From a virus (Duplodnaviria; Caudoviricetes), in the IMG/VR virus record IMGVR_UViG_3300021091_000011: a stretch of DNA of 64,000 nt; one strand, 5' to 3'. Below, piece after piece: positions 7,731 through 55,476 of this stretch; the stretch's first letter is position 1; every line of letters starts with the position of its first letter. The notes under the pieces were generated by a model. That model saw only the letters and a program-made list of their open reading frames with translations. It was not told the DNA's origin and searched no databases. The position numbers were made by a program, and so were the translations under genes.

Positions 7731-8084
7731 GTGTATTGGATCTACGTCATAGAATCGTTAGTGCCTCGTTACGCGAATAACGGACGTAGATTGCGTGGGT
7801 TTTTCTACGTCGGCATGACGACGCACCCCAACCGCAGATTACGCCAGCACAACGGCGAAATCTTGGGCGGGGGTCGTTATACTGCGAAGCATCGACCGTG
7901 GGTGCTCCGCACCGTGTACGGACCTTATTCTTCTAGGTCCGAAGCACTCAAAGCCGAGTACGCACTCAAGCATAGTAAGCGAGGCGAGGCCCGACTGAGT
8001 TGGACGCCTAATGATTCGGTTTGGTGCCGAACAGCGTATCAAATTGCGGAAGGGGAGGGATTCGAACCCTCGGTGAGGGATTAG
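7731..8084 (+). CDS. SLX1-like GIY-YIG endonuclease
   Basis: WIYVIES...FYVGMTTHPNRRLRQHNGEILGGGRYTAKHRPW...EALKAEYALK; GTG start at 7731. Confidence 0.85.
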   Translation: MYWIYVIESLVPRYANNGRRLRGFFYVGMTTHPNRRLRQHNGEILGGGRYTAKHRPWVLRTVYGPYSSRSEALKAEYALKHSKRGEARLSWTPNDSVWCRTAYQIAEGEGFEPSVRD

Positions 8085-8134
8085 CCCACACACGATTTCC
8101 AATCGTGCGCCTTAAACCACTCGGCCACCCTTCC
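8047..8134 (-). tRNA. tRNA-Ser(GGA)
   Basis: Full cloverleaf, anticodon arm CACGA-TTGGAAA-TCGTG, long variable arm, GGTTCGAATCC; no encoded CCA. Confidence 0.93.
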
Positions 8135-8169
8135 GTATCATGCACTCTGATTTCAGAGTGCGCTCAAAA

Positions 8170-9024
8170 TCAACGCTTTACGAGCGATAACAGGGTTCTG
8201 CGCTCATTAGAACCGACAGGCATCGTAGACGCCAGCCGAATCAGAGAACTTCTCTGCGAAGAGGTCACTCTAAAAGAAGCCTGCTTGTACGGCGCAGTCC
8301 AGTCAACTGAACCGCTGCTAAGTGCCTTCACCGCAGGCTCTACGTGGCCCTTATCAGGGTCGATCACAGGCATTTCTTTGCGGTCAGGAGCCCAACTCGG
8401 CACATTGCGTTTCATTCCCTTGACGTTGTTTGCCATTATGATGATTCCGGTTTCAACTGAACCGAAGTTTTTTTCGAGAATTGCCTTGACGTCATCCGCA
8501 GAGATCGGAAACTCACCCGGAACGCCGTTGTTGGCATACCCTTCAAGCATATCCGCGACGTTCTTGGGCGTGAACTTCGAGATTGAACCCTCGCCTTTCT
8601 TGCCGTTTCTCACGTTGAACTTACCTACGGTGAGGATGTTCAATACGCGAAGAAGGTCTTTACCCGGAAGAGCCGCCTTGTAGCCTTCAACCTTGGCCGA
8701 ATTGCCGCCTGCGATGATCGCAGCCGCCCAACGATGATGACCATCCATGATGAAGTTGTCAGCAGAGATCAGCGCGTTCAAATCGCCGCCGATCTTGCCC
8801 TTAGCGAGCATACCCAAAGCCATGCCGACAGCCTTCCCTAAGACCATCGTGGTCTGGGATGGCTTCAGCGCAGCAGCAACGGAGCTAACCTTGCTTACTG
8901 AGATTTTATCCGAACTGCCGTCGCCGGACTCGCACATCAAGTGAGCGATAGACGGGTCTACTCCTGAGAGCGTTCCGGCTTCCTCAAACTGCTTCTCGAA
9001 AACACCATCTGCCTTACGCCGCAT
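8170..9024 (-). CDS. ParB/sulfiredoxin-like nuclease-domain protein with C-terminal LIRLASTMP module
   Basis: LISADNFIMDGHHRWAA ParB/Srx signature; ends in KQASFRVTSSQRSSLIRLASTMPVGSNERRTLL. Confidence 0.7.
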   Translation of the reverse strand: MRRKADGVFEKQFEEAGTLSGVDPSIAHLMCESGDGSSDKISVSKVSSVAAALKPSQTTMVLGKAVGMALGMLAKGKIGGDLNALISADNFIMDGHHRWAAAIIAGGNSAKVEGYKAALPGKDLLRVLNILTVGKFNVRNGKKGEGSISKFTPKNVADMLEGYANNGVPGEFPISADDVKAILEKNFGSVETGIIIMANNVKGMKRNVPSWAPDRKEMPVIDPDKGHVEPAVKALSSGSVDWTAPYKQASFRVTSSQRSSLIRLASTMPVGSNERRTLLSLVKR

Positions 9025-9287
9025 AATCTACCTCTTCTAGTTAGAGCATCTCGTAACGGCTGATAGATAAATGTGATAACGGCGATTTCACACCAAAGAT
9101 TTCTTGATCTTACCTTCCAAAAACCCCTATGCCTTTTTTACAACCCTCACGGGCAAAAGGCTTACGCCGAAGGGGAAGACCGACGCCACCTGAAACTGCG
9201 TCGTGTGAACACGCAAGACCCGACAGACGCAGTTACTACCTGCCGATCAGGACGGAGGTTGGATTTCCGGGAGGAGGCAGTCGGGCC

Positions 9288-9446
9288 TCATTCTGAGGTT
9301 TCATCAATCGGCTCTTGCTCGTTCTTCTTGGAATCGGAAGAACCGCAGGAAGGGCAGACTCGCGCCTGCTTACCTGATTTTTTGATGATCGTGCGGTATT
9401 TAGTCCCACACGCAGAACAAGTGACTGACACTACGGCTTTACCCAT
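9288..9446 (-). CDS. Small zinc-ribbon protein
   Basis: MGKAVVSVTCSACG...VCPSCGS; start refined to ATG 9446. Confidence 0.65.
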   Translation of the reverse strand: MGKAVVSVTCSACGTKYRTIIKKSGKQARVCPSCGSSDSKKNEQEPIDETSE

Positions 9447-9473
9447 ATCGTAACATACCAAACAAAATGAAAA

Positions 9474-9537
9474 TAGTCCTTGTCGGACTTGAACCAGCAC
9501 TTCCTCGCGGGAATCTGCCTGTTTCGCCAAGAGGCCA
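9474..9537 (-). pseudogene. Degenerate tRNA-like remnant lacking an anticodon arm
   Basis: D-arm-like GGCGAAACAGGCAGA and T-loop GGTTCAAGTCC are present; acceptor stem is imperfect; no anticodon stem-loop. Confidence 0.35.
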
Positions 9538-9540
9538 TCG

Positions 9541-9612
9541 TGGGTCGTTTGGGATTCGAACCCAAAACCAGCGGATTAAAAGTCCGATGCGCTACCGTTG
9601 CGCCAACGACCC
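9541..9612 (-). tRNA. tRNA-Lys(TTT)
   Basis: GGGTCGT acceptor, TCGGA-CTTTTAA-TCCGC, GGTTCGAATCC. Confidence 0.9.
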
Positions 9613-9618
9613 TAAACA

Positions 9619-9680
9619 TTGGGGAACTACCTAGATAGGCGAAATCAAAATCCGCAGTCCTGCCGTTAGACGATTCCCCA
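9619..9680 (-). pseudogene. tRNA-Gln(TTG) with deleted T-loop
   Basis: TGGGGAA acceptor, D-arm and GCGGA-TTTTGAT-TTCGC are present, but CTAGGT joins directly to AGTTCCCCA (about 9 nt such as TCGAATCCT missing). Confidence 0.7.
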
Positions 9681-9686
9681 TTGTAG

Positions 9687-9759
9687 TAGCCGCAGAGGGA
9701 TTCGAACCCCCGACCGTCGCTATGTAAAAGCGATGCTCTACCAACTGCGCTATGCGGCT
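9687..9759 (-). tRNA. tRNA-Val(TAC)
   Basis: AGCCGCA/TGCGGCT acceptor, TCGCT-TTTACAT-AGCGA, GGTTCGAATCC. Confidence 0.92.
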
Positions 9760-9766
9760 ATGTTTG

Positions 9767-10076
9767 TACCCGAAGTCGGATTCGAACCGACACGCCCTTG
9801 CGAGCGGAGGATTTTCTTACCACTATGGTTTTCACCACCAAATCACGTTGTTTGTGGTCTGGACTTTGCCTTCACCCTCGCCATCTAGCCTCGGCTAGAT
9901 TCGTTAGGGCGGCTACCGTCAAGTCTCTACACCTTCCCCATTTATCATGGGGCTTGGCTCGGCGTTGGGTCGCTTTCGCAGGCCGTTCACCGAATTTGGC
10001 AGCATTCACTCAAGGGGCTTTCCCCCTTGGTGCTCAATCAATAAGTCCTCTGTGGCTACCCTTTCACCATTCGGGC
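9767..10076 (-). tRNA. tRNA-Leu(TAA), intron-containing
   Basis: 5' exon ends GAGGACTT and 3' exon starts AAAATCCTC, so splicing gives GAGGA-CTTAAAA-TCCTC; variable arm and T-arm present. Confidence 0.9.
9816..10042 (-). mobile_element. Group I self-splicing intron (IC3 type), 227 nt, no ORF
   Basis: Inserted after U34; P1 CTT/GAG; conserved P AAATTCGGTGAA, Q AACGCCGAGCC, R GTGTAGAGACTTGACGG, S AAGGCAAAGTCC; terminal G. Confidence 0.88.
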
Positions 10077-10085
10077 AATCTCAAG

Positions 10086-10158
10086 TGCCCCCAACGGGAT
10101 TTGAACCCGTGTAACCAACGTGAAAGGCTGGCGTCCTAGGCCACTAGACGATGGGGAC
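10086..10158 (-). tRNA. tRNA-Glu(TTC)
   Basis: CCAGC-CTTTCAC-GTTGG anticodon arm, GGTTCAAATCC. Confidence 0.92.
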
Positions 10159-10162
10159 TAAA

Positions 10163-10420
10163 TCAAAGCCAATAATCAAAGATCGATTCCGCGAAATAAT
10201 CGTCCGGCTTGACCGACTCGATCTGCAAGTCACCATTCGGACTTGCATAACGCACGATGCGCTTTACCAACCAACGCAGGTAATCAGGCCCCCCTGCAAT
10301 CACCCTCGTTTCGGAAAAGCCAACGAGTGCTTGCTCAAGCCCTTCGGTTGATTGCGGTAAAAAATCTTCTAGGTGCTTTACGCCTAGCGCGGTTTTATTT
10401 TCGTGATCGAGTAGCCACAT
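10163..10420 (-). CDS. Hypothetical protein within the tRNA array
   Basis: 85 aa from ATG 10420 (MWLLDHENK), filling the gap between two tRNAs. Confidence 0.55.
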   Translation of the reverse strand: MWLLDHENKTALGVKHLEDFLPQSTEGLEQALVGFSETRVIAGGPDYLRWLVKRIVRYASPNGDLQIESVKPDDYFAESIFDYWL

Positions 10421-10453
10421 GGTACGGCTACTCAAAAAATCAGATAAACGCGG

Positions 10454-10526
10454 CACCACCGGAGGGAATCGAACCCCCATCGACAGGCTTAGAAGGCCCG
10501 CGCCTTATCCGTTAGACCACGGTGGC
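10454..10526 (-). tRNA. tRNA-Arg(TCT)
   Basis: CGGGC-CTTCTAA-GCCTG, GGTTCGATTCC. Confidence 0.92.
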
Positions 10527-10532
10527 AGATAA

Positions 10533-10606
10533 TGGACCCCCTCGGGCTTGAACCGAGAACCAACCGGGTATGAGCCGGACGCGCTAACCACTTGCGCCAG
10601 AGGTCC
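10533..10606 (-). tRNA. tRNA-CAT (elongator Met or Ile2)
   Basis: TCCGG-CTCATAC-CCGGT; G1-C72 is paired, so not an initiator. Confidence 0.88.
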
Positions 10607-10611
10607 AAAAG

Positions 10612-10694
10612 TACGAGCAAAGGGACTTGAACCCCCACGCCCTTGCGGGCACCGGAACCTAAATCCAGCGTGTCTACCGTTCCACCATGCTCGC
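10612..10694 (-). tRNA. tRNA-Leu(TAG)
   Basis: CTGGA-TTTAGGT-TCCGG, variable arm GCCCGCAAGGGC, GGTTCAAGTCC. Confidence 0.92.
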
Positions 10695-10701
10695 TTATTT
10701 G

Positions 10702-10779
10702 TGGACGAGGGAGGACTCGAACCTCCGTGTGATATGCCTGATTTACAGTCAGGTGCAGTCGCCGCTGTGCCACTCGTCC
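10702..10779 (-). tRNA. tRNA-Tyr(GTA) with short variable region
   Basis: CCTGA-CTGTAAA-TCAGG, GGTTCGAGTCC. Confidence 0.88.
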
Positions 10780-10869
10780 AAGAGGCAGACTTCCTCTAAC
10801 TCGGTCTGCCAGCGAGTTCGGTTCCCATGGCAGGTAGAAAAGGAGAAAACCCCGCCACGGGCATCGAGA

Positions 10870-11073
10870 CTACTTGCGCTGAACGAAGTCGTACATTTCT
10901 TCGGCCAGCAAGCGAACCTGCGTGAAGGTCGGGAACGGAACTGCCAGCGGCGGGCGGTTTTCATACTGCGCCCGCGAGTTCTCGTTCTCCTGAGCCGCGT
11001 GATACTGCTCCACGAGCATATTCCGCGCCTCTTGGAGAATCCCCCAACGGATTTCGTAACCGGACTGAGACAT
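10870..11073 (-). CDS. Small hypothetical phage protein
   Basis: 67 aa from ATG 11073: MSQSGYEIRWGILQEA...FPTFTQVRLLAEEMYDFV. Confidence 0.7.
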   Translation of the reverse strand: MSQSGYEIRWGILQEARNMLVEQYHAAQENENSRAQYENRPPLAVPFPTFTQVRLLAEEMYDFVQRK

Positions 11074-11115
11074 AAACCAGACTCCCTGTGTGTGTGGTGA
11101 AAGCAAATACCGCTG

Positions 11116-11347
11116 GTGTGCAACCACCTGAGATCGCTCTAGCGTCCTATAACGATCTCCCCTGCGCGGCGACAAGGACCCCGATAACGGTGAGGTAACC
11201 GGAAGGAGTTTTCGCACCCCTACAAACGCACGGATTCTCGTCCCATGACTACGCTCAAGGACTTAACGAGCCCTGAGAATCGTCCGCATATAACGTCGCG
11301 GCCCCGCCGTTTTCTACCTGACGGTACAGGTTTGAGTGGTTGCACAC
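11116..11347 (-). ncRNA. Candidate ~230-nt structured RNA
   Basis: Perfect 12-bp closing helix GTGTGCAACCAC/GTGGTTGCACAC; inner helices GATTCTC/GAGAATC, AGATCG/CGATCT and CCTG/CAGG; G-U pairs favour the minus strand. Confidence 0.5.
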
Positions 11348-11353
11348 TCAAGG

Positions 11354-11426
11354 CTCCGACAGCAGGACTCGAACCTGCGACCAGGCGGTTAACAGCCGCC
11401 TGCTCTACCAACTGAGCTATGTCGGA
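11354..11426 (-). tRNA. tRNA-Asn(GTT)
   Basis: Canonical cloverleaf, GGCGG-CTGTTAA-CCGCC. Confidence 0.94.
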
Positions 11427-11429
11427 AAA

Positions 11430-12120
11430 AGCGAGGGCGTTCCACCCTCTAGAGCACGATGCCCTTACCACGGCGTCGATCCGCAGTAAGCCCCTGCGCG
11501 TACCTACGCAGAAGACTGAAAGGCTCAAGGCGGGAGCTTACGGTTATCGCTAACCTTAGACCCACTCCACTTTGCTTACCTGCGCCTAACAGGTGCTGCT
11601 GGACTTGTCACTCCAGCGGGAGGTCACTACTTTCCGTCCACCGCCATCCAACCAGAGACATTCCCTGATCGAACGCACGAACTCGGCCAGCAACGTACCC
11701 AATTCGTCCCGCCCTTTTTAACCTCGGCGTCAGGTTCCCCACCACGGTTGGACTGCTACCGTCGGTCTATTGACCGTCGCTCGGTGTCCACTTCGTCCGA
11801 ACGATCCCCGAGCACGGGGACTTACGATCACGGCTTAGAGGCCCGACGAGTTATCATCGGGCTTACCGCGACAGGCTTGTAAGCCGTAGTGAGGATAATA
11901 GGGTCTCCCGCGTCGAGACTTAGCCCGATGCGGTCGTATATTCTGCGACCTAGACCCCTAGTCGCTACATCCGTGATAATCTGAGCCAAATCCCGAACAC
12001 GGCTTCGGGGCTCAGTTCGGGTAGCAGGTCGGCACCAACCAGCCCCCGAAATCGTTTTCAATGAACGTGACGGCTTACTTTACCCAAGCCGTATTGAACG
12101 TCAACCCCTTAGTTGACGGA
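11430..12120 (-). ncRNA. Candidate ~690-nt large structured ncRNA between tRNA genes
   Basis: No credible ORF; at least 8 hairpins (e.g. TCCCCG/CGGGGA, GCCCGA/TCGGGC, TGAGCC/GGCTCA, ACGGCTT/AAGCCGT, CGTCAAC/GTTGACG). Confidence 0.5.
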
Positions 12121-12127
12121 AACTAAG

Positions 12128-12206
12128 CACGCGCAGGAGGAATCGAACCTCCATGCCCTTGCGGGCACCGGAAAATCCGGCGTGTCTGCCATTCCACCAT
12201 GCGCGG
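12128..12206 (-). pseudogene. tRNA-Leu-like gene with anticodon loop reduced to 3 nt
   Basis: Paralogue of 10612..10694; D-arm, variable arm and T-arm intact; anticodon arm is CCGGA-TTT-TCCGG. Confidence 0.75.
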
Positions 12207-19122: not shown

Positions 19123-20541
19123 TTACTCTCCTGCGCTAATGCGTGCCCGTCGAGCGAGCAAGGAGCCGATCCGAATGATCGCTCGGACTTCGGCGGTTGT
19201 AAGGAATCTGCCTGCTTTTTTACGGCAAGCAGCAAGGAACGATTGCGAACTAGCGTACTTGTTTATTGAACCGACGTTATAAGCCGTCCAATAAATATCG
19301 CTACGCAGATTTACCCCGTAAAGGGTGTTTACCGTGACGATGCCGGATACTAAGTCGGCTTGGCTACTTGCAACGCGAACCAAACGATTGATCGCGTTGG
19401 CATAGTCCAATCGGGCAGCGGCCATCTTCGTCACGTTTTCATTAGTCGAAGCAGAACCACCATCGGCAGGCGGCAAAGCCTGAGAAGGACCTTCGTCCTT
19501 TTTCGCTAACGACTTCTCAACACGCTTCACGACGCGGTCGCGCAAAGCCGTGTAGAGTTTTTCTTCGGCCTCATCTAACGGGTCTTTTTCAGCGGGCGCG
19601 GCGGCGGCGGCGGCATCACCACCGTCGCTTCCGTCACCGCCTAAGTCAAAAGCGTGATGAATCGAAGCCGCTTTCTTCGTCCCGACCGAGTCCCATTGGG
19701 GAGGGGGAGAAGAAAGAATCTCTTGGGCCTTTGCACCAATCGCGTCCATAGGATTCAGGATGTTCCGCATTACCGCGCCGGGAAAAGCGGGGACCGCCAC
19801 CCAAGAGGCTTCGATAAAGCGAACGCCACCTGTTTCATTCATAGACGTATGACCGCAAATCTCGGCCACTCGACGACGGTTGCCCTGATCGTCGATGAAG
19901 TAGTTGCCCTTCTCGTACTTGATGTGGTCACACAGTTGCGTTTCGTCTACGCCGACGTTGCCGCATTTCGTACATTGGGTCGCATCACAAATGCAGCCCA
20001 TCGAAAGCGTCGTCAGCGTACCGTTCTCGATCTGCTGAACAAGTGAGGCGTGCTTACGATCCGTGGCAACCAAGATATCAACGTAAATCGAATCGCCAAT
20101 GTCACGCGCCACGGCGTCGATGACGCGGCCTTTGGACTGCTCTTCGATTTGGACGTGCTCAAGGTAATTCTGAGCACCGACGAACGACCGATATGACTTT
20201 AACAACACATCGCGCGGGAACGCATCGTGATTGTTATTGATAAACTGATCGGTATTCGGCGTGACGAAATACTCGGACCAACGACGGTCAACCGTATTAG
20301 ACCCGATCTTGATCTTGCCCGTCTTGACGCCCGGCACAGGCTTGATATCGACCGAAGCGACGATAGTGCAATGGCTAATGAGATAACGAGCAGGGTCCAA
20401 AGGACCGCCCAAAATCTCTTGAGCCTGAGCCGAAACGCTCTTCGCCGGAGTCACCGAAGCGGTCTTACGCAGACCGCTCCAAGTAGCGGGACTAACGCTA
20501 GGGTGAACAACGACGGCGCGTGCAGTTTTTAGAAACGCCAT
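19123..20541 (-). CDS. Prohead (maturation) protease with Zn-ribbon insert
   Basis: NYLEHVQ...GRVIDAV, TLSMGC, CTKCGN...CDH, RFIEASWVAVPAFPGA (herpes/HK97-type protease motifs); TAATG coupling to the upstream gene. Confidence 0.75.
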   Translation of the reverse strand: MAFLKTARAVVVHPSVSPATWSGLRKTASVTPAKSVSAQAQEILGGPLDPARYLISHCTIVASVDIKPVPGVKTGKIKIGSNTVDRRWSEYFVTPNTDQFINNNHDAFPRDVLLKSYRSFVGAQNYLEHVQIEEQSKGRVIDAVARDIGDSIYVDILVATDRKHASLVQQIENGTLTTLSMGCICDATQCTKCGNVGVDETQLCDHIKYEKGNYFIDDQGNRRRVAEICGHTSMNETGGVRFIEASWVAVPAFPGAVMRNILNPMDAIGAKAQEILSSPPPQWDSVGTKKAASIHHAFDLGGDGSDGGDAAAAAAPAEKDPLDEAEEKLYTALRDRVVKRVEKSLAKKDEGPSQALPPADGGSASTNENVTKMAAARLDYANAINRLVRVASSQADLVSGIVTVNTLYGVNLRSDIYWTAYNVGSINKYASSQSFLAACRKKAGRFLTTAEVRAIIRIGSLLARRARISAGE

Positions 20542-21026
20542 TACTCGGACCACTTCCAATGATTCTGAATGTCCTCAAACCGAATCAGGAACATACATTG
20601 CGGGCAACCAAGCAAATGCTCGCTTGCGCCCTCAACGCGAGTGAACGTCGTCTTACGCATCGGAGATTCAGGGCAACGCGGGCAAAACACGGACTTCTGA
20701 TCGCATTCCGAGCGCGTAGCCCTATACTTGCGGTCTTTATTGGCCCAATACATGGCCACGACACGCCTAGAACTCGCGGTCTTAGCGACGACGGAGTTCG
20801 TAAAAGGCGGGGATACGTCGGGGTCAGATTGGACCACAAGAAATTCGACTGGTACGCGCTTGTTGCCAATCGGGAACTCAACGTCAACCATACCGATAGC
20901 TGGATACACCGCCGTAATACGACCGGACTGCGAGTTCAAAAGACCATAAGGAACAACGACGTCCCCGATAGCGAATTCATGCGCTCGGGTCTGGTATTTT
21001 ACGTTGTTTTCGGCCTTTTTACGCAC
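20541..21026 (-). CDS. Hypothetical protein with C-terminal zinc ribbon
   Basis: FCPRC...GCPQC; KTASSRRVVAMYW between the domains. Confidence 0.7.
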   Translation of the reverse strand: MRKKAENNVKYQTRAHEFAIGDVVVPYGLLNSQSGRITAVYPAIGMVDVEFPIGNKRVPVEFLVVQSDPDVSPPFTNSVVAKTASSRRVVAMYWANKDRKYRATRSECDQKSVFCPRCPESPMRKTTFTRVEGASEHLLGCPQCMFLIRFEDIQNHWKWSE

Positions 21027-22324: not shown

Positions 22325-25300
22325 TTAGTAAGAAACCCTTATAGAATACCTACCGATATTTTCAATGTAGCGGCTTGCAACCCGATGCGCTTGGGCGCGA
22401 GCTTCACGCCTTATTTTCGTCCTTATGCTGATGTCCTTACTGAATGACTTTGCTTTATTCCACAAAGCGGCCATGATTTTGTGGTACCGCTCCATCGAGT
22501 CTTGAACCCTTTTGAGGTTTTTATTGTCGGTAAACCACTTCTTCTTAGAAGTGATGCTATTCAAGTCGTCGTGCAACTCGCTTCTGGCTTGGTCTAGTTC
22601 AGGGTTGAAACTTGAACCTTCCAACTCGCTGAACCTAAACTGCGCGGTCAATGAACCGAGAACCTGATCACGAATGAACTTGCGGGCTGCGGGTGCTGAG
22701 TAAGACTCGAAAACGGAAGCGGCAATGTCTTTCATAGGGTCTTTTTCAGGCAAAAACTCGGCTAGTTCTTCGTCAGTCAGGTTTGCGTAAGCGGCGGCGG
22801 CTTTCGATGTGAGGTTTTGCAGTTTTTCTGCGTTCGTCTTGCCAACGTCGCTTGAGGTATCGAGAAAGTCTTGCGCCAAGCCCATGCGATCCGCTGCACG
22901 GATGGCGTTCGCCACAACGGGGGATATACCCTCGACCTTCTCGCCAGGAGCAGTCTTGGTGATCTGGTAAATCTTGAGCGCATTGTACGCCGCAGAAGCC
23001 TTAGCGTGGGCGACGCTATTTTCAGGCAGCGAATTGATCTTAGCGTAAAGCCTGTCCGCATGGCTCTTGGCTTCTTCAGCGGGCATCTTACTTTTGACGA
23101 GTTCTTGGTATTTCGATCTAGCGAAACTATCGTCCTCGCGGGCTTGATCTTCGGGGCTGTTGATGCTTGCAGCCCTATCCTCTGGAATCGAGAAACGAGT
23201 CATCGGATCGTTATTCTTGTAGTTCGCCGCGAGCACGGCTGCGTGCTTTGCCGCTTCTTCAGGATTAGTAGACTTACGCTTTTTCGATGCGTCGCTCGAA
23301 AAGTAAGCCTTTGCTTCATCTACTTTTTTGGCGAAAACTTTTTCTTTAGCAGGGTCACTAAGGCTATCCACGGCTTCTTGCGAAGCCGTGACAACGCTAT
23401 CTTTCAATTTCTGACGGAATATCTCTTGAGAGAATGGGGGAAGTGATTTGAGAAACGAGTTGACGGAGCGGTACTCATCGGCATCTGTGAAATCTTCGAA
23501 CAATTTTTCGATTTGGCGTTCAATGGTTTTTGGCGTCTTGTTACCCAACTTTTGTTTTTCAAACAGCAACACGCTTAGAGCGTGGGTTGCCTTTTCGGGG
23601 TCGATGTTCTCGTCATCACTCATCTCTTCGAGTTGCTTTCGGGCAACCGAAAACTCTTCGTTGATTTGCTTTTGGTCGGCATCTTTCAATAATTCATTGA
23701 TAGAAGTGAACTTTTCCGACACATTCTTCATTAGATCCTCACCATCGTCGAAATAATCGACAATGGCGCGAAGCTCATAGCTGAGTGACTTCTTGAATTC
23801 GTCGAATGTCTTTTTGAACTTCGACTCTGGCGACTCCATAGGCTTAGGCTTGGATTCGGTGGCCGGAGCGGGTTCAGGGGACGGTGTAGATTCGGGCTCG
23901 GATTCGGGCTTGCCGATCAGGGGGCTAGGGTCTTTGGGTTCCGCAGCCCCATCCGTTTCGGCGCTAGGTGCGGACTCAGGAGCCGGAACGGACGTCGGCT
24001 CGGTAGTCGGCTTAGAGTCATCCGACTTAGGCTTTTTGGACTTCAACCACTTCTGATACAGGTCTTCGTAGACCTGATACTCTTGCTCTTCGCCCTTATT
24101 GGTCTTACTAGCGAGGGTCTGCAAAAGCACTTCACGTTTCGAGACAGGATTCTTAACCTTATTAGTGCCGTACTGTTTGAGGAACTTGACTCTGTTATCC
24201 TCTTCCTCGGACTTCTTGCCCTTTTGCCTAGCAATCCTGACGGCCAAATGCCTTACGACGACACTCTGGATAAGTGCGGCGTCTTTGTAGTTCTTAGACC
24301 GATCCTTCTTGTCCTGCTTCTCGTCGGAATCATCGCCACCGCGCGTGTCTCGATCCTCGACGTCTCTGCGGCGCAGGTCTTGGCGGGGCGGCTTGAACTT
24401 CGTGTCCTTTTGGATCAGCCGCTTATCCTCGCGCTCTTCCTTTTCGGACTCTTCCAACGTAGCGGTCTTGGTCGTCGCCAAAGCATACTCGACCAATCGC
24501 GCCCAAGCGGGATATCGACGTTGTACGTCACCGTCTATGAAATACGACGCGAAAGAATCCGCGAACGCCTCGCCCATGTTGTTTTGAGCGAAAGGCAACG
24601 GCTCGGCATCGCCCCAAACGTCAACGCCAAGTGGTTCTGCGGCTTTAGTCAAACTGAAGTCGCCCTCTATGACGTGGCCGATTTCATGGGCGAACACGAA
24701 GTCTTTGATGTCGGGGGACAAGTCCCAAAACTTCGGATACAGGTGGATTACGCCGGATTTGACGCTGGCCTCTGGATGGCTACTAGAGCCTGAAACGCCA
24801 AAGACTCGATTGACCTTGGCTTTCGAGTATCGGGCCAACTTGGGGTGCCGACGAAAGAAACCTTGAACCCAAGCCTTCGTCTCGTCATCACCGCCAACAA
24901 GAACAGTCGCCCCCGCTTTCTTATCCAAGCGGTCTGCAACCGTCCCGTCGTGCAGATATGACTCTTCGATCACGGGCGCGAGATACTGCGAACGTAAGGT
25001 CGAAGCCTCATGGCCCACGGCTTCAGCGGCCTGCTCAATGGCTTTCTTGAACTCGTCCTTGAGGATTTTGTCTTTCTCTTTTCGGGCACGGGGTAGTTCC
25101 GGTCCCTCAGACCTGATTTTTTTAAGTGCCGCACGGACTTCATCGTTTGCGTGAAGACCACGCAGGTCTTTCGCCGTGATCCCATACGGCTCAAGGTATT
25201 CGTTCACGTCGCTCGCATTGACGATGCAATCATCGCCGTCACAAAGAATGCGGTCCTCGGGCTTCTTGCCCTTCGTCGCATCTTTGAGTGCGGAGACGAG

Positions 25301-25735
25301 TTTGGCGTCGCTGACGGTTTTGTTGTGCTTGACGCCTGACTTGCCCGTGTAACTAATCTCAGCCTTATTGCCCTTGAACTTGACGTGACGGACTTCCCAC
25401 ACGGTCACGCCGTAGTGCCCATTGTCATCTGCCGAATCGACGTTGCCGACACGCTCGTAAGTATGGTCGATCAAACCGACCGCTAATGCGGTCAGCCGCT
25501 TCATCGGGTCTTTGTCGCCCAATGCCTTTTTGTAGGCATCACGCAAGTCCGGCAACTTGGGCAGGAAATTCTGAATGCGCTCGGCTTTTTCCTTATGCCG
25601 ATTCGCAACTTGGCGTGGGCCGTACTCGTAGATTGTAGTCTCGCCGCCGTCTTGCGACTTGACCTTCTTCTTCTTCTGGTACTTCGCGGCGACCCGCACA
25701 GGGGAGAGGGTCGAGTTAGCGTCGTGCGAGTGCAT
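22325..25735 (-). CDS. Multidomain protein: topoisomerase IB + zincin (HExxH) metallopeptidase + unknown domains
   Basis: TopIB pentad ERVGN, YTGKSG, KDLR, VGH, RSQY; FAHEIGH...EAFADSF. Confidence 0.8.
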   Translation of the reverse strand: MHSHDANSTLSPVRVAAKYQKKKKVKSQDGGETTIYEYGPRQVANRHKEKAERIQNFLPKLPDLRDAYKKALGDKDPMKRLTALAVGLIDHTYERVGNVDSADDNGHYGVTVWEVRHVKFKGNKAEISYTGKSGVKHNKTVSDAKLVSALKDATKGKKPEDRILCDGDDCIVNASDVNEYLEPYGITAKDLRGLHANDEVRAALKKIRSEGPELPRARKEKDKILKDEFKKAIEQAAEAVGHEASTLRSQYLAPVIEESYLHDGTVADRLDKKAGATVLVGGDDETKAWVQGFFRRHPKLARYSKAKVNRVFGVSGSSSHPEASVKSGVIHLYPKFWDLSPDIKDFVFAHEIGHVIEGDFSLTKAAEPLGVDVWGDAEPLPFAQNNMGEAFADSFASYFIDGDVQRRYPAWARLVEYALATTKTATLEESEKEEREDKRLIQKDTKFKPPRQDLRRRDVEDRDTRGGDDSDEKQDKKDRSKNYKDAALIQSVVVRHLAVRIARQKGKKSEEEDNRVKFLKQYGTNKVKNPVSKREVLLQTLASKTNKGEEQEYQVYEDLYQKWLKSKKPKSDDSKPTTEPTSVPAPESAPSAETDGAAEPKDPSPLIGKPESEPESTPSPEPAPATESKPKPMESPESKFKKTFDEFKKSLSYELRAIVDYFDDGEDLMKNVSEKFTSINELLKDADQKQINEEFSVARKQLEEMSDDENIDPEKATHALSVLLFEKQKLGNKTPKTIERQIEKLFEDFTDADEYRSVNSFLKSLPPFSQEIFRQKLKDSVVTASQEAVDSLSDPAKEKVFAKKVDEAKAYFSSDASKKRKSTNPEEAAKHAAVLAANYKNNDPMTRFSIPEDRAASINSPEDQAREDDSFARSKYQELVKSKMPAEEAKSHADRLYAKINSLPENSVAHAKASAAYNALKIYQITKTAPGEKVEGISPVVANAIRAADRMGLAQDFLDTSSDVGKTNAEKLQNLTSKAAAAYANLTDEELAEFLPEKDPMKDIAASVFESYSAPAARKFIRDQVLGSLTAQFRFSELEGSSFNPELDQARSELHDDLNSITSKKKWFTDNKNLKRVQDSMERYHKIMAALWNKAKSFSKDISIRTKIRREARAQAHRVASRYIENIGRYSIRVSY

Positions 25736-25765: not shown

Positions 25766-26653
25766 CTAGATTTTGACGATCTTGATGTCGAAGTCTTCGT
25801 CGCTGTCCACGTCAACATACTCAATGACGCGGAGTTTCAGTTTCGGCTTTCGACTCTTCGGGAGTTTGTTCTCGTACCCCTCAAACTCCATCATATCGGG
25901 GATAATGTAGAACACGAGTTCCAAATCGGTCAGGTTGAGAACCATTTGGCTCGTCGTGCTCATGTTGTCCGTGTGCCGAACTATATTATTTGGGTTGGCG
26001 CGGTCATCCATTCGGGCGACCATAAGTGCGGTCGCTAAGTCATCAGGAGATTCGGCGTCACGGAGCGTCTTGCGGGCCGTATCTCTCCTAATGACGGACG
26101 ACTCGTAGTTTGGTCCGTCGGTGTAGCCCGCGTTGTCGTAGTAAATGCCGTGGTTGGTGCGAACCACCATCTTGCCTTCGGGCACCTTGCGAGAACGAAA
26201 CTCGTGCTTGCGCGTGCCTTCGATAGAATACGTCGTATTCTTGTCTGCGACGATGGTGTGGCCCTTTATGCCGCCTTCATACGTCTTAGCAGACTCCACG
26301 GCTTCTTCCAAAGAATCAGACTCAAGTATCTTCAAGATGCGCGGGCCGTCTTTAGACTTCTTGCCCTTGGACTTAACCACTCTTTGTTCAGACTCATCGC
26401 GGGCAACTTGCAAGGCCGAGTTAACGACGCCAATGCCGTACTCGTTCAAACCCTCGCACCAGTCCGTAGTGACGTCGGTCATATATAAGACTTCGATGCC
26501 CTCACGGACTTCGTGTATGATCTTGACCTTTGGCGTGTAGTTCCGGTCACGGTTCTTGAGCAGGCATTTCTTTTTGCCCCACTTACCGACCGCGATGATG
26601 CAAGCCTGCCGAAGTAAGTGCGCCGTGACGATCCTCGGGATAGACGGCTTCAT
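25766..26653 (-). CDS. Ntn-hydrolase (C45/C59/C69-like) with 17-aa leader
   Basis: RQA|CIIAVG, LKNRD, EGLNEYGIGVVN, VRTNHG. Confidence 0.75.
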   Translation of the reverse strand: MKPSIPRIVTAHLLRQACIIAVGKWGKKKCLLKNRDRNYTPKVKIIHEVREGIEVLYMTDVTTDWCEGLNEYGIGVVNSALQVARDESEQRVVKSKGKKSKDGPRILKILESDSLEEAVESAKTYEGGIKGHTIVADKNTTYSIEGTRKHEFRSRKVPEGKMVVRTNHGIYYDNAGYTDGPNYESSVIRRDTARKTLRDAESPDDLATALMVARMDDRANPNNIVRHTDNMSTTSQMVLNLTDLELVFYIIPDMMEFEGYENKLPKSRKPKLKLRVIEYVDVDSDEDFDIKIVKI

Positions 26654-26656
26654 GAC

Positions 26657-29600
26657 TCAAAAACGTCTCCGTGAGAACTCCAATGAGTTAGAAAACGCAG
26701 GGTGCGGACTGAGTTTGCGAGCGACGACTTGCATATCACGAAGCGACCAAGGCGCTTCGTAAACAGGATTCATAACGCCCTTCGGGATGAACAGCACGAA
26801 TTCCGACCCATCCGTAGATGCCGGATACTCCCGAACAGGAATCACGTCCCACGCTTCCTGAGCGTTAGACCAATGAAAGTGATAGGCTTTGCCGGGCTCT
26901 TTAGGCTTGGGTATGCTGGCAGGCTCTAAAGAGATTCGAGGCAGAACGCGATTTATCATGGGCGCGATCTGATTGAGTTCTGCGACACCACGCAAAACCA
27001 ACGTAGCCGGATGCGGCGTGCGAAAGATTTGAGGCGGTTCGATGTCCTCGGAGGCAAAGCGAAAGTGTCCCGCAGCTTCCCCACGGATGATTCTCTTGGC
27101 TTCAGCCTCGGCGCGTTGTAGGTCCGTGTGAATGCGAATCGGTAAATACTCCTGCGCGTCCGTGTCGAACAGAACGACGTGGTATTTCCCTTCGTGCTCG
27201 GTGATATGAACCTCGAAGCCGTCCTCGTTATTCTCTAGCACGAGAAGGGGCTTCTTACGGGGAGCGCGGTCATCCCACCATGCCGCCCCAACGAAACGAC
27301 TCGCCACCCGTCGGGCAGACGGCTTCTGACCCTCGTCGGCCTTGTCCATCTGATTTCTCACTTTCTCGGCCCACGCTTTGCCGGGGTCACCGCCCCAAAT
27401 CAGCCAAGCGACGTGGCCCTTATCGTTCCAGGGTGTGTCTTTGTTTTCGGGCGCGATGGACTTGTTCTTCTCGTGGCGTGAGAAAAACGCGACCATCTGG
27501 CGAATCACGTCGGGCGAAGTATTGTCCCGATTCTTCAGGTTCACCGCACGTTGAACGCCGGAACCGATGCCCTGCTTGCTCGCCTCGGCGGGCGTCAGAC
27601 CACCTTTGTTAGAGGGGCTGGCCTTCTGCCGATATTCAAGGCCCTTAGCGGCGGCGTCTGCCACGGACTTCGGCGGCTTGAAATCAATGTGCGAGTATTT
27701 ATCCGGAACCGCAGCCGTCTTGAGCAGTTTCCGATACAAGTCAGATTCGGTCAAATCAGGGTCCAAGACCAATAGACGCCGAATCGTATTCGTGACGTTC
27801 TTGATTTCCGCGCCGCTGATGCCCAACTCACGAATGAGCCTCGGCATATCAAACTTGCGACCAGGCTGGTCCAGCACTTCCAGCAAGGCCACGGCTTTAT
27901 CCGGCTCGGCTTCGGAGTACGCCCTGAACTGAGGCAACAGGTCTTGAGGCACGACAGACAAACGCTTGCCCATCGGCATCTGCAAGTCTAACAGGTCGAA
28001 CAGGAACTTCAGCTCCGAACGCCTGTTCGCCCAATTGTCTAACGCAGCCTTGAACGGCTTGTTCTCTTCGGCAATCTCACGCACTACGTCGAGCAGGCCC
28101 AACTTACCCATTTCGAGCAGGGCTTTTTTACCGACGCCAGGCTCAAAGAACGTCTCGACCAACATCGTGCTCAAATGAGCGGCAGGCATCTGCTTGAGTT
28201 TTTGCGCGTTGCGCTTGATGGAAGCCGCAACCTCGGCATCGATCCTGAACCCATACTTGAGCAAGAACTTGATCGCGCGAACCATCCGGCTAGGGTCGTC
28301 CGAAAAGACGATATCAGGGTCGTTCGGGCATCGCATCGTGCCCGATTGCAAATCCCTCAAACCGCAACCGGACAAGTCGATGATCTCGGCCTTATCAGGT
28401 CCATCGGCCAAGTCATGCAATCGCCAGAGCAACGTGTTGTGAACCACCACCCCATTCGCCACGAAAGCAGGCTCAACCCCCTCATTCATCGAGATGTCGA
28501 ACACATCCTGTTCCCCGGCATCCTCGACCGACGTGACTCCGACGTACTGATAACCCAAATCAAACAACCGCTGGAGATTGGCGTGCTCATCTGGGCTAAT
28601 GACCTTGAGGCTCGCCATAAAGCCATCAAAGTCCCCTCGGGCATGGGCATCGTGAAGAAGCCGTTGAATCTTGCGAACAGGCTCATAAACCCCAAACAAT
28701 GTCCGTGACGCGCCACCGTCCGTAACGTAAACGGACTGATTGGCATCCTGTTTACGACCTGCTACGAACCCCTTGATGTAATCCGCAGGGATGCCATAGC
28801 GGTTCCGGCTCTTGAACTTCCGACTCGTGTAGTCAAAAGTCTTGGTCACCATCCACGGATGGATCTTTGACCACAAAACTGCCGCATCCACAGCGTTAAC
28901 ATAAACGAATTCGCCCTCCACCTTGCCCAACACGCCATGAGCACCGAGTAGCACCTGAAGTTGCTGCCGGATGTGAGGAGATACGGAACGAAACACCATC
29001 CGGCCAGAGTCCGGTCGGATGGAGCCGTCACCCTCCAAGTAGGCGGCAAGGAACGCCGACTGACTTTGCTCGTCAGCCTGCAAGATGGACCACGGGACAA
29101 CCTTGTAGTGAGAAGCGGACCTGTCGTTTTTGCTCCCACCACAGTAAAGGCCCAAATCCTCCAACCAGCCCACCACAGCCTTGCTGTCAGCGTAGATATC
29201 GTAACCGTCCTTGTTGGCAACGAACTCCACCCCCCGCAGAATGCGAACGGACCCCTTTTCAACCACCTTGTTGCGAGAAGGTTGGAACCCGAAAACGGCT
29301 TGGAAGCACTCGACGTATCTGGAAATGAGGGCAGGATCGGAGTTGCTGAATGACACCCGCTTGTGGGTATTTGACCCCTCGGCTACCACACACCCGATCA
29401 CGAACGCCAACTCGGGCGTCATCACCGCAGGCTTGGTGACCTCCTTGAGAGCCCCCCGCTTCGGCTGCACAGGATCCGGCAATTCAAGGGCAAGAGGCGT
29501 CTGCCTCACCACTTGTCGCACGGGCACGCAGAGTAGATCTCCTTCTCCAAGTTGATCAGCCTGCACCCACTCATGGCGGCACCCCCGAAGAACTAGAACC

Positions 29601-30769
29601 GGATGATGGTGCGTGCAAGCGAAGGAATGGCCCCACTCGGTCGTCACCCGCAAGGTGGGGGCAAAACCGCTGTATTGCCACCCCACGGCGGTTGCAGGTC
29701 CATCCTGTCCCGCTACTTTCAGATTGATGTTCTGCTGGACCCCATCCTCTCGGGAAGCGATCTCGTCAATGCGGAGGATGCCCCTCTCAGTAGGGATGAG
29801 GGTGTCCCCCGCCATGCAGTTGAACGTGAACTCGCGTCGCACGACATCTTCTTGAATGGTCGCAGGCTCGACCATGTTCGGCTTGTAGCCTTTGCCGTCG
29901 TCACCGCCGTAACTCTCTTTGCGAGCGTTGGCGATTTCGATCACTTCGCCGGACAGGTCATAGCCGTTGAGAACCCACGGCCCTTTGATCGTCAGAATCG
30001 CCACGCCATAGTTGTTCGTGACAAGCGACGATTCGCAAGGCAAGGAATCGGCAATCTTGCGAGCGAACCAAGCCGAGTCTTTGCCACGCAGCGCGACCGA
30101 GTCGATCACCACGTCCACGTCTTTGATAGGTTGGCCGATGATGAAGTTTCTTACTGCGCCGCCCACGACGTAGACGTGCTTAGATACGCCTGCGTTTCGC
30201 GCAACAGCAGACAGAAACTTCATTACTTCGACTTGCTCGCTGGCCTGCTTCTTAAACTCAGGCATCGGCGGGACTTCCTCGCATTCCATCGCAGGAACGG
30301 TCACGAGGTTAGCCTCTACCTGATAGCCCAAGCCCTCTACGAGTTTGGTGTATCTCTTCAGGTACGGAGCGTTGTCGTCCCAAAAGACGACTTTGTCTAC
30401 TCCGGGAAACTTGCTCAGAAGTTTATTGATGACCTTGATCTTGAAAGCAGGCGTGTTGTTCGAATCCGAGAGGTAAACCTCATCGAACCGTAATCCGGCT
30501 GACTTTAACAACTCAGGCACGCGGTATCGAAAACTAGATTTGACCGGACGTCCCGTAATCATCACCGCATAGGTGTCCGGATTAGCGATAGAAGCCCGAG
30601 CCGCAGATACGGTCTTAGAAATCCACCACTCACCCGAAGGGTCAATCGGGACGCAAGGAGGATTCAGCGACTCGCTGGAAATCCACCAACGGTTGTCCCA
30701 ACCCTCGGGCGTTTCGGGGGAGCGAAATAGCGTCCCGTCGAAATCGTAAATGTGGAGTTCAAGGCCCAT
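26657..30769 (-). CDS. cca: Polyprotein: HAD (Swiss-Army-knife RNA-repair-like) phosphatase + class II tRNA nucleotidyltransferase (CCA/poly(A) polymerase) with intein + unknown domains
   Basis: LHIYDFDGTLFRSP; YVVGGAVRN...KDVDVV; EDVVRREFTFN; FSDDPSRMVRAIKF. Confidence 0.8.
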   Translation of the reverse strand: MGLELHIYDFDGTLFRSPETPEGWDNRWWISSESLNPPCVPIDPSGEWWISKTVSAARASIANPDTYAVMITGRPVKSSFRYRVPELLKSAGLRFDEVYLSDSNNTPAFKIKVINKLLSKFPGVDKVVFWDDNAPYLKRYTKLVEGLGYQVEANLVTVPAMECEEVPPMPEFKKQASEQVEVMKFLSAVARNAGVSKHVYVVGGAVRNFIIGQPIKDVDVVIDSVALRGKDSAWFARKIADSLPCESSLVTNNYGVAILTIKGPWVLNGYDLSGEVIEIANARKESYGGDDGKGYKPNMVEPATIQEDVVRREFTFNCMAGDTLIPTERGILRIDEIASREDGVQQNINLKVAGQDGPATAVGWQYSGFAPTLRVTTEWGHSFACTHHHPVLVLRGCRHEWVQADQLGEGDLLCVPVRQVVRQTPLALELPDPVQPKRGALKEVTKPAVMTPELAFVIGCVVAEGSNTHKRVSFSNSDPALISRYVECFQAVFGFQPSRNKVVEKGSVRILRGVEFVANKDGYDIYADSKAVVGWLEDLGLYCGGSKNDRSASHYKVVPWSILQADEQSQSAFLAAYLEGDGSIRPDSGRMVFRSVSPHIRQQLQVLLGAHGVLGKVEGEFVYVNAVDAAVLWSKIHPWMVTKTFDYTSRKFKSRNRYGIPADYIKGFVAGRKQDANQSVYVTDGGASRTLFGVYEPVRKIQRLLHDAHARGDFDGFMASLKVISPDEHANLQRLFDLGYQYVGVTSVEDAGEQDVFDISMNEGVEPAFVANGVVVHNTLLWRLHDLADGPDKAEIIDLSGCGLRDLQSGTMRCPNDPDIVFSDDPSRMVRAIKFLLKYGFRIDAEVAASIKRNAQKLKQMPAAHLSTMLVETFFEPGVGKKALLEMGKLGLLDVVREIAEENKPFKAALDNWANRRSELKFLFDLLDLQMPMGKRLSVVPQDLLPQFRAYSEAEPDKAVALLEVLDQPGRKFDMPRLIRELGISGAEIKNVTNTIRRLLVLDPDLTESDLYRKLLKTAAVPDKYSHIDFKPPKSVADAAAKGLEYRQKASPSNKGGLTPAEASKQGIGSGVQRAVNLKNRDNTSPDVIRQMVAFFSRHEKNKSIAPENKDTPWNDKGHVAWLIWGGDPGKAWAEKVRNQMDKADEGQKPSARRVASRFVGAAWWDDRAPRKKPLLVLENNEDGFEVHITEHEGKYHVVLFDTDAQEYLPIRIHTDLQRAEAEAKRIIRGEAAGHFRFASEDIEPPQIFRTPHPATLVLRGVAELNQIAPMINRVLPRISLEPASIPKPKEPGKAYHFHWSNAQEAWDVIPVREYPASTDGSEFVLFIPKGVMNPVYEAPWSLRDMQVVARKLSPHPAFSNSLEFSRRRF
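28436..29818 (-). mobile_element. Intein with LAGLIDADG homing endonuclease (461 aa)
   Basis: Starts CMAGDTLI, block B ACTHHHPV, endonuclease motifs VIGCVVAEGS and FLAAYLEGDGS, ends FVANGVVVHN followed by Thr. Confidence 0.92.
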
Positions 30770-33602: not shown

Positions 33603-34250
33603 TCAACCTTTGAGCGGCGATCCGTCGTCGTCGAACAAGCGGCTGACCTCAAACGCACCGTCAGCCGTCTTGGTCACGTTCCACAAATCATTCGTGCTCT
33701 TGTGAACCAAGAGATTGCTCGATACGCGCAAAAAACCCGTGAGATCGCCAAGCGAAGCGACCTTGATTGCAGGTGATCCACCCGTCAACACGGAAAGCGT
33801 TTCGGGCGTGCAAGTGATGGATGCGTATGGATCACGCCCACCAATCTGACCCTGCACGACAACGAGATGATCGGGTAGCGATTGTTTTGGCTGCTTCGCA
33901 TCATCAACAGGCGAAACGGTCGCGCCCAAGCCACCGCCACCCCACGCGCCCCAAGTCACGGAAACCTGATTCGTGTCTAGGTTCACGAGAGCCGTGAAGC
34001 CTCTGGCACCGTCGTCACCAGCGGAATACATGGAGAACGAAGATCCCGTGTAAACCGTCACCTTGCGCTTGCTGAATCTTACTTCAGCCAACGCACGCTG
34101 TACGGGCTTGGGGAGTTTGCTGACCAAGGCAGGAACGCCAAAAGAAGCAGACTTGGAAATCGTGCCCCGAACCGTCTCAAAATCCGAGCCGATGGACTTA
34201 CTACGCAAGTGCTCGTCAATCGACGGGGAAGAACCCCACTTGATATTCAT
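33603..34250 (-). CDS. Hypothetical protein
   Basis: 215 aa; ATGA coupling with the upstream TopIB gene. Confidence 0.7.
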   Translation of the reverse strand: MNIKWGSSPSIDEHLRSKSIGSDFETVRGTISKSASFGVPALVSKLPKPVQRALAEVRFSKRKVTVYTGSSFSMYSAGDDGARGFTALVNLDTNQVSVTWGAWGGGGLGATVSPVDDAKQPKQSLPDHLVVVQGQIGGRDPYASITCTPETLSVLTGGSPAIKVASLGDLTGFLRVSSNLLVHKSTNDLWNVTKTADGAFEVSRLFDDDGSPLKG

Positions 34251-55164: not shown

Positions 55165-55476
55165 TCACCAAATCCCCGACGTTTCGCAGCCGTGTTTCTG
55201 GAACCAAGCGTCAAGTTCAATCAAGCCGTCACGATTGGACGACCAGACTTCAAGACGGTCGAAGCCGACCTTCACGCCCAAATCGGTAATCGGTTTGACC
55301 GAACCGAGTTTCAAACGCCCATCCCGAAATGACCGGAGCATGGTCGGAAGATTCTTGATTGGGTTCGCAGGCTGGTAGACCGTGAGCCTATATTCATCGC
55401 GCACGTTTGAATCTAGCCAACGGGAGGCGATCTTACGGGCGAGGTCTACTACTTTAGTAGGGGCTTCATCTTTCAC
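55165..55476 (-). CDS. Hypothetical protein
   Basis: 103 aa with RKIASRW. Confidence 0.65.
   Translation of the reverse strand: MKDEAPTKVVDLARKIASRWLDSNVRDEYRLTVYQPANPIKNLPTMLRSFRDGRLKLGSVKPITDLGVKVGFDRLEVWSSNRDGLIELDAWFQKHGCETSGIW

Follow-up and report, generated by a model that had tools for sequence, protein, structure and literature searches.

A predicted tRNA end-repair protein encoded among head genes

We analysed a 64,000-nucleotide stretch (hereafter the window) of a phage contig of 204,357 bp (Caudoviricetes; IMG/VR record IMGVR_UViG_3300021091_000011) and studied one of its genes, located at 26657..30769 on the minus strand, whose single open frame encodes a protein of 1,370 residues named P0001. 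We think, with a little more confidence than an even chance would give, that P0001 is capsid cargo, an enzyme that heals tRNA 3' ends and adds CCA, and that it forms an undescribed branch of the phage polyvalent proteins. Taken separately, tRNA 3'-end healing and CCA addition by P0001 appear moderately likely, and its loading into the capsid and delivery appear plausible. The order of modules is a 'Swiss Army Knife' (SAK)-type HAD phosphatase, a class II nucleotidyltransferase (NTase) split by an intein, an all-alpha module that we call WGGD, the hexapeptide RVASRF, and two rare modules, X and Y. All motifs quoted in a preliminary description of this gene were found in the one open frame: DFDGT at residue 9, KQAS at 174, GGAVRN at 203, RRE at 311, KTAA at about 1017, WLIWGGD at 1122 and RVASRF at 1154. 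The two enzymes named there, HAD phosphatase and class II NTase, both gave Pfam matches above the curated cut-offs. The domain identities given there are supported, but a LAGLIDADG intein (residues 318-778), which makes up a third of the protein, had been overlooked. KQAS, KTAA and RVASRF, which had been taken as separators, are true module borders, and the same modules are found in other orders and positions in homologues.

The architecture is a variant of known parts, namely those of phage RNA repair, polyvalent proteins and inteins. A megablast search of the P0001 gene against deposited phages returned zero matches. With tblastn, the intein-free allele matched deposited phages in the NTase part only, at less than 60% identity, and none of them had the full architecture. 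None of the six modules (HAD, NTase, intein, WGGD, X, Y) recurs in another open reading frame (ORF) of the window.

The HAD phosphatase and nucleotidyltransferase modules

The HAD phosphatase occupies residues 1-173 (30251..30769, minus strand). HAD_SAK_1 (PF10307) matched residues 28-185 with an E-value of 1.2e-15 and 58.2 bits against a cut-off of 25.6, and both the DxDxT nucleophile motif (motif I, DFDGT, residues 9-13) and the acidic motif IV (WDDN) are kept, as in the SAK RNA-repair family. Our reading of its function follows the Pfam title, 'HAD domain family 1 in Swiss Army Knife RNA repair proteins', and PMC7824862, in which the SAK-HAD domain is assigned, as a prediction, to the clearing of linear 3' phosphates in jumbo-phage RNA repair. 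According to the same paper, this domain 'tends to occur as a standalone domain' in jumbo phages, and CCA-adding enzymes of these phages restore tRNA 3' ends. P0001 shares the two motifs with the SAK family but has its HAD domain fused to a CCA-type enzyme. By sequence, the HAD domain had no match among solved structures. T4 polynucleotide kinase-phosphatase also has a HAD-type 3'-phosphatase domain, joined there to a kinase domain that P0001 does not have.

The NTase follows in two parts. Its head forms the N-extein (residues 175-317; 29819..30247, minus strand), which contains GGAVRN...DVD, IEIANAR and RREFTFN and was defined by PF01743, phrog_2244 and invariant columns. The C-extein (residues 779-1016; 27722..28435, minus strand) holds the rest of the head, motif D (DDPSR) and the neck and body, and was defined by partial matches to TIGR01942 and TIGR02692 and by alignment of an intein-free relative, P0004, to the structure 3AQL. 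The PolyA_pol head model (PF01743) matched residues 199-322 with 43.1 bits against a cut-off of 23, a match shortened by the intein, and P0004 scored 55 bits on the same model. In PHROGs, P0001 was assigned to phrog_2244, tRNA nucleotidyltransferase (1e-22). G203, G204, R207, D217, D219 and E278 were invariant in the family alignment, including the carboxylates of GGxVR...DxD and, on the next strand, a third acidic residue. P0004 aligned without a break over about 215 residues, across the intein junction, to E. coli poly(A) polymerase (PAP; 3AQL) and to solved CCA- and A-adding enzymes.

Compared with class II NTases and PAPs (PF01743; E. coli PcnB 3AQL, CCA-adding 6IBP, A-adding 4WBY), P0001 shares GG-x-VR-x...D-x-D, the E-x-A-x-x-R strand and, in variant form, RR[D/E]FT-x-N and [E/D]D-x-x-R. 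It differs from them by RRE in place of RRD and DDPSR in place of EDxxR, by a low identity to every solved enzyme, by the intein, and by being embedded in a 1,370-residue multi-module protein encoded in a head operon. RRE and DDPSR are conservative variants of the ribose-recognition motif (RRD) and the nucleotide-template motif (EDxxR); the residues aligned with them in E. coli PAP are RRD and EDPVR. The RRE variant, which had been pointed out as a departure from the usual RRD, is indeed present but is no peculiarity of P0001: RRE is the norm in this family, being invariant in the 10 aligned members and found in about 95 of 108 relatives scanned with a regular expression.

Relatives of P0001 pair the same NTase with HAD_SAK_1 (N-terminal or C-terminal), a 2H phosphoesterase, an RNA ligase (PF09414) or a P-loop kinase (PF13671), and many carry topoisomerase IB and NTase in one polypeptide. 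The swapping in of partners that heal RNA ends fits a role in RNA repair. The phage also encodes its own tRNAs, and they had been described as lacking CCA, which proved to be the case: the window contains a cluster of 10 tRNA genes (8046..12206, minus strand), all with an acceptor stem of 6-7 bp, and in none of them is the discriminator base followed by an encoded CCA. We therefore favour tRNA ends as the substrate, given these CCA-less tRNAs, the RNA-end-healing partners of the relatives and the assignments made in PMC7824862. The base after the discriminator is C in nine of the 10 genes, and two read CC (Arg CCG, Asn CCT), so that part of the end is already in place in these genes, though a complete CCA never is. 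At 12127-12206, ARAGORN further called an unusual tRNA whose anticodon has four bases (tccg).

The WGGD module is shared by unrelated enzymes and by head proteins

The WGGD module (residues 1018-1153; 27311..27718, minus strand) contains KY-x-H-IDFKPP and WLIWGGDPG and is a candidate capsid adaptor. It was present in 70 of the first 129 proteins collected, where its placement was N-terminal, middle or C-terminal. By sequence, its relatives comprise 441 stand-alone proteins of 74-238 residues and at least 1,179 longer ones, and it is the best-conserved part of the proteins that carry it. Its partners include NTase, HAD, InPase, 2H, topoisomerase IB, PAP2, superoxide dismutase and PS decarboxylase, and also Ntn-hydrolase-like, EncFtn-like/rubrerythrin, GNAT and C39 peptidase domains and several DUFs. 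The joining of one module to such unrelated payloads fits co-delivery better than a shared pathway.

The WGGD module of P0001 had no Pfam match even at an E-value of 5, nor did any of 41 members. The predicted model was all-alpha with a pLDDT of 86. When compared with the PDB, it gave no fold by Foldseek, and the best VIA-align Z score, 4.7, is noise for helical bundles; searches with language-model features gave nothing usable. The model did match ESM Atlas clusters carrying Phage_portal, Phage_portal_2, Phage_Mu_F, Peptidase_S78, Mu-like_Pro and DUF5824, with TM scores of 0.72-0.79 over about 120 residues. Against BFVD we obtained 55 matches at E<=0.001, and those with names were mostly prohead proteases (including the XkdF type) and portal proteins. 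Going by these predicted models, the WGGD module is structurally akin to domains that portal, MuF and prohead-protease proteins carry, which lends indirect support to delivery in the virion. Its setting varies among cultured phages: a 657-residue coiled-coil protein in the scaffold position of Vibrio phage 1.013.O begins with it, and in S-CBS4 a stand-alone WGGD lies between the portal and capsid genes. We regard WGGD as an unnamed domain that is very widespread in the head modules of phages.

Several relatives showed further arrangements of this module. DUF5661 (PF18905) recurs between NTase and WGGD in many of them (P0014, P0035-P0041 and others) and is absent from P0001. In P0341 (367 residues), the WGGD module and DUF5661 are joined to an EncFtn-like/rubrerythrin domain. 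Domains of the EncFtn-like/rubrerythrin type are classic cargo of encapsulin shells, and by analogy P0341 is a suggestive parallel for capsid cargo loading. In P0368, DUF5824, the WGGD module and DUF6582 stand in tandem (residues 351-659). DUF5824 is about the size of WGGD and is present in many of the clusters matching the WGGD fold; it may be a distant paralogue of WGGD.

A portable tag at protein ends and module junctions

RVASRF (residues 1154-1159; 27293..27310, minus strand) directly follows the WGGD module. Motif scans showed that it is a copy of a portable motif, [KR][VI]A[SA]R[FYW]. About 60 copies of this motif were found in 41 of 121 relatives, either at module junctions or a few residues from the protein ends. 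In most relatives a copy lies about 10 residues before the NTase module, even where the NTase comes first, and the motif closes many stand-alone module-Y proteins. It was present in 15 of 120 stand-alone WGGD proteins, always near a terminus, against 0.9 in shuffled sequences. In the window, the strict motif had three copies only, all in real genes: P0001, the C-terminus of a topoisomerase IB protein, and the N-terminus of a 103-residue ORF (55165-55476, minus strand; KIASRW at residue 15). RVAxR[FYW] is a portable tag that is terminal or placed at module junctions.

T4 internal proteins have capsid-targeting sequences, and encapsulins recognize cargo-loading peptides. Like these signals, and by analogy only, the RVAxR tag is short, portable and terminal and occurs on unrelated enzymes that may be cargo of an HK97-fold shell. 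It has no sequence likeness to them and, unlike them, is also internal, at module junctions.

The P0001 family resembles polyvalent proteins

For the polyvalent proteins of phages and conjugative elements, injection together with the DNA has been proposed (Iyer, Burroughs, Anand, de Souza, Aravind 2017, PMC5512222), and the same proposal is made in PMC7824862. The P0001 family compares well with those described in PMC5512222: its members are large and multi-domain, unrelated enzymatic modules are shuffled among relatives, and the genes stand beside portal and head genes, in the head and packaging module. The 2H, InPase, ART-PolyVal, GNAT and C39-like peptidase modules are shared as well. The joining of activities that have no shared pathway, as seen in the relatives of P0001, is a hallmark of polyvalent proteins. 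The common denominator differs, however: in the P0001 family, known here from sequence, it is the unnamed WGGD module together with the RVAxR[FYW] tag. PMC5512222 is silent on CCA-adding nucleotidyltransferases and has topoisomerase in its reference list only.

The P0001 gene lies in a head operon

P0001 had been placed among head genes, and its surroundings agree with this. The gene belongs to a co-directional, tightly spaced array that runs from the portal gene at the upstream end (37290..39011, minus strand; phrog_16240, E 2e-27) towards a head-maturation protease gene downstream (19123..20559, minus strand; phrog_18299, E 1.5e-14). It is separated by 1 nucleotide from the upstream gene and by 3 nucleotides from the downstream gene, both on the same strand. 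Two other loci, L001 and L002, have the same gene order with an intein-free allele. In L006, a 2,268-residue NTase-topoisomerase IB protein (P0073) comes directly after the portal gene, and in L007 the relative P0053 lies in a structural module.

The tagged topoisomerase IB protein of the window (22325-25735, minus strand; PF01028, E 1.5e-24), encoded in the same array as P0001, has 1,136 residues and a eukaryotic-type core, and its RVASRY lies 18 residues from the C-terminus. Between its gene and that of P0001, a 295-residue protein is encoded (25766-26653, minus strand) that weakly matches the Ntn-hydrolase family AAT (PF03417, E 1e-4), with Cys18 right after R-Q-A. This gene is absent from the same place in L001 and L002, and P0314 is a WGGD-fused relative of this AAT-like protein's family. 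A 487-residue protein encoded at 34247-35710 (minus strand) had no Pfam match that would support a topoisomerase IB, even at an E-value of 0.5.

The nucleotidyltransferase is interrupted by a mobile intein

The intein comprises 461 residues (318-778; 28436..29818, minus strand) and is inserted inside the RR[D/E]FT-x-N motif of the NTase. It was recognized by the Intein_splicing model (PF14890), an intein N-terminal model (TIGR01445) and LAGLIDADG_3 (PF14528; E 2e-9, 37.9 bits against a cut-off of 22.5), and by its absence in relatives. The splicing residues are complete, with Cys1 (C318), block B (T386-x-x-H389), the terminal H777-N778 and the +1 residue T779. Both LAGLIDADG motifs, at residues 454-466 (29372..29410, minus strand) and, as LEGDG, at residues 573-583 (29021..29053, minus strand), keep their acidic residue, Glu in the first and Asp in the second, and judging from these residues the homing endonuclease is probably active.

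In protein alignments, exactly the intein residues are missing from P0004, P0011, P0016 and P0037, and close intein-free relatives, whose NTase exteins are 93-94% identical to those of P0001, read RREFT[FI]N-[ST]LLW. In the syntenic allele of L001, 1,383 nucleotides (952-2334 of the gene) are missing precisely between ...TTCAAC and ACGTTG..., with flanks of about 85% nucleotide identity. Eighteen relatives carry the intein, all at the same site, in a homologue list that was seeded with an intein-bearing query. The intein was more conserved than the C-extein in all 15 distant carriers and more than the N-extein in 12 of them. In P0003 the intein is 100% identical to that of P0001 and the exteins 94%. 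On the extein tree, built from the same list, the presence of the intein is scattered (18 changes against a shuffled mean of 17.8), and the well-supported branches force at least nine gains or losses. This distribution is the pattern expected of repeated homing and loss, and the intein is both precise and mobile.

It shares Cys1, TxxH, HN, the +1 Thr and two LAGLIDADG motifs with known LAGLIDADG inteins of phage and bacterial genes (PF14890, PF14528; intein-containing GyrA model NF038098), and like them it sits in the most conserved catalytic motif of the host protein, with empty alleles known. Its host gene, a CCA-type enzyme, is new in this comparison. We found no report of an intein in a CCA-adding enzyme in the literature searched. 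The allele is new for this enzyme class, as far as that literature goes, and apparently actively homing.

Modules X and Y

The C-terminal residues 1154-1370, which begin with the RVASRF tag, contain two rare modules, with 46 matches among 1.84 billion representatives. Module X (residues 1160-1243; 27041..27292, minus strand) is modelled as a small beta-meander with a helix and is absent from 835-residue alleles. Module Y (residues 1250-1370; 26660..27022, minus strand), with FHWSNAQ..WDV, DGSEF and HPAF, belongs by family alignment to a rare family that conserves FSFHWSNAQ..WDV, DGAEF and HPGYA and is often found as stand-alone proteins of 113-160 residues. Compared with the PDB, the two modules gave no fold by Foldseek, and VIA-align Z scores reached at most 6.3, for module X only. 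In an Atlas shape search, module X found only unnamed small viral proteins. For module Y, the feature search gave nothing and Pfam gave no match, and the fold searches barely sampled it. We dropped the idea, taken from one MAFFT alignment, that module Y is a degenerate 2H phosphoesterase: it has a single conserved H-W-S where two H-x-[ST]-x are required, and the positions that MAFFT paired with the 2H domain of P0021 are not conserved ones.

A model for P0001 and its alternatives

In the reading that we favour, P0001 would be made late, together with the head proteins, and the intein would splice out and restore the NTase. Phosphates that block RNA 3' ends would be cleared by the HAD domain; rebuilding or completing the CCA end of the tRNA would be the task of the class II NTase. 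Possible substrates are the CCA-less tRNAs of the phage and tRNAs whose acceptor ends have been damaged by host defences. The WGGD module with RVASRF would be the adaptor that takes the enzyme into the procapsid, and P0001 would enter the next host along with the DNA, as proposed for polyvalent proteins.

Several observations weigh against this model. On the enzymatic side, CCA-adding, A-adding and poly(A) activities are inseparable by sequence here, because the top solved match of the NTase is E. coli PAP (1.4e-17), the solved matches mixing PAP, A-adding and CCA-adding enzymes, and because the NCBIfam equivalogs, the best being the pcnB subfamily, all scored far under their cut-offs. P0001 has neither a kinase nor a ligase domain, and therefore cuts in the anticodon loop would be beyond P0001 acting alone. 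On the side of packaging, the position in a head operon is by itself no proof, and the fold kinship of WGGD, seen between models, shows neither a function nor a binding partner. The MuF domain (PF04233), the usual marker of polyvalent proteins, was not detected in P0001 by Pfam; the occurrence of the WGGD fold on MuF-bearing clusters is a kinship of the neighbouring domain and not a MuF domain itself. The junction between HAD and NTase in P0001 has no RVAxR tag. Finally, the stand-alone WGGD of PaBG is found among replication and RNA genes, beside an RNA 2'-phosphotransferase and not among head genes, and is annotated as DNA-binding.

A first alternative, which would refine the capsid-cargo reading and does not exclude it, is that P0001 is a polyprotein processed in the procapsid, the head protease cutting at [KR]-x-A|[SA] (KQA|S at 174-177, KTA|A at 1015-1018) and near RVASRF, thereby freeing HAD, NTase, WGGD and X/Y. 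Where HAD meets NTase, K-x-A-S is indeed conserved amid varying surroundings, as is [KR]-x-A-A in front of WGGD; [KR]-x-A-[AS] precedes about 30 of 42 distinct WGGD module starts, and the modules exist also as separate genes. Herpesvirus assemblin, whose fold is shared with T4-type prohead proteases, cuts at x-A|S. However, the motif could be the N-terminal flank of WGGD itself, for stand-alone WGGD proteins carry it after a short leader; the head-maturation protease gave chance-level rows only when compared with solved structures, so that these establish no family or specificity for it; and P0001 could function without the WGGD adaptor being cut away from the enzymes. We hold such processing as a possibility, and a tentative one.

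A second alternative keeps the chemistry and removes the capsid. P0001 would be a cytoplasmic late enzyme that matures CCA-less tRNAs and repairs tRNA ends, its WGGD module would be a nucleic-acid-binding accessory, and its slot in the operon would reflect late timing only. CCA has to be added or completed for all 10 tRNA genes of the phage, large phages commonly encode stand-alone CCA enzymes, the WGGD module is rich in conserved Arg and Lys, and the annotation and location of the PaBG protein agree with such a role. Yet a cytoplasmic role leaves unexplained why WGGD is found on portal, MuF and prohead-protease proteins, why it is joined to payloads that have no role on nucleic acids (superoxide dismutase, PS decarboxylase, Ntn hydrolase), and why divergent relatives have kept the slot next to the portal gene. 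We consider it unlikely.

The last alternative, that the NTase is a PAP or another RNA-tailing enzyme (for example one marking host RNAs for decay) and that HAD acts on a nucleotide or another phosphoester, draws on the PAP and pcnB matches given above and on the fact that class II CCA enzymes and PAPs have no reliable sequence distinction, but it is improbable, since the PHROG matches are phage tRNA nucleotidyltransferases, the domain partners in the family heal RNA ends, the phage carries CCA-less tRNAs, and P0001 has only a short loop between IEIANAR and RRE, which we take to be CCA-enzyme-like, E. coli PAP having a longer insert.

The reading of P0001 as capsid-borne tRNA repair can also be widened. 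The WGGD module and the RVAxR[FYW] tag could together be an undescribed system by which uncultured phages of a large lineage load cargo in general, placing dozens of different enzymes in the capsid. P0001 would be its tRNA branch, a pre-packaged phosphatase and CCA-adding enzyme that is injected along with the DNA and restores acceptor ends blocked or trimmed by host defences ahead of phage gene expression. This wider claim is speculative and we put it forward with reserve. Candidate defences acting on the acceptor end are 3'-pyrophosphorylation by CapRel/toxSAS-type toxins and acceptor-stem nucleases.

Significance

If P0001 is both packaged and active, it would be the first virion protein by which a phage brings the chemistry of tRNA 3'-end repair into the cell. 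The idea of polyvalent proteins would then extend from anti-restriction and signalling enzymes to the repair of translation, and P0001 would indicate that the acceptor end of tRNA is a target of host defences. WGGD and its short tag offer a testable handle on how large phages choose the cargo of their capsids.

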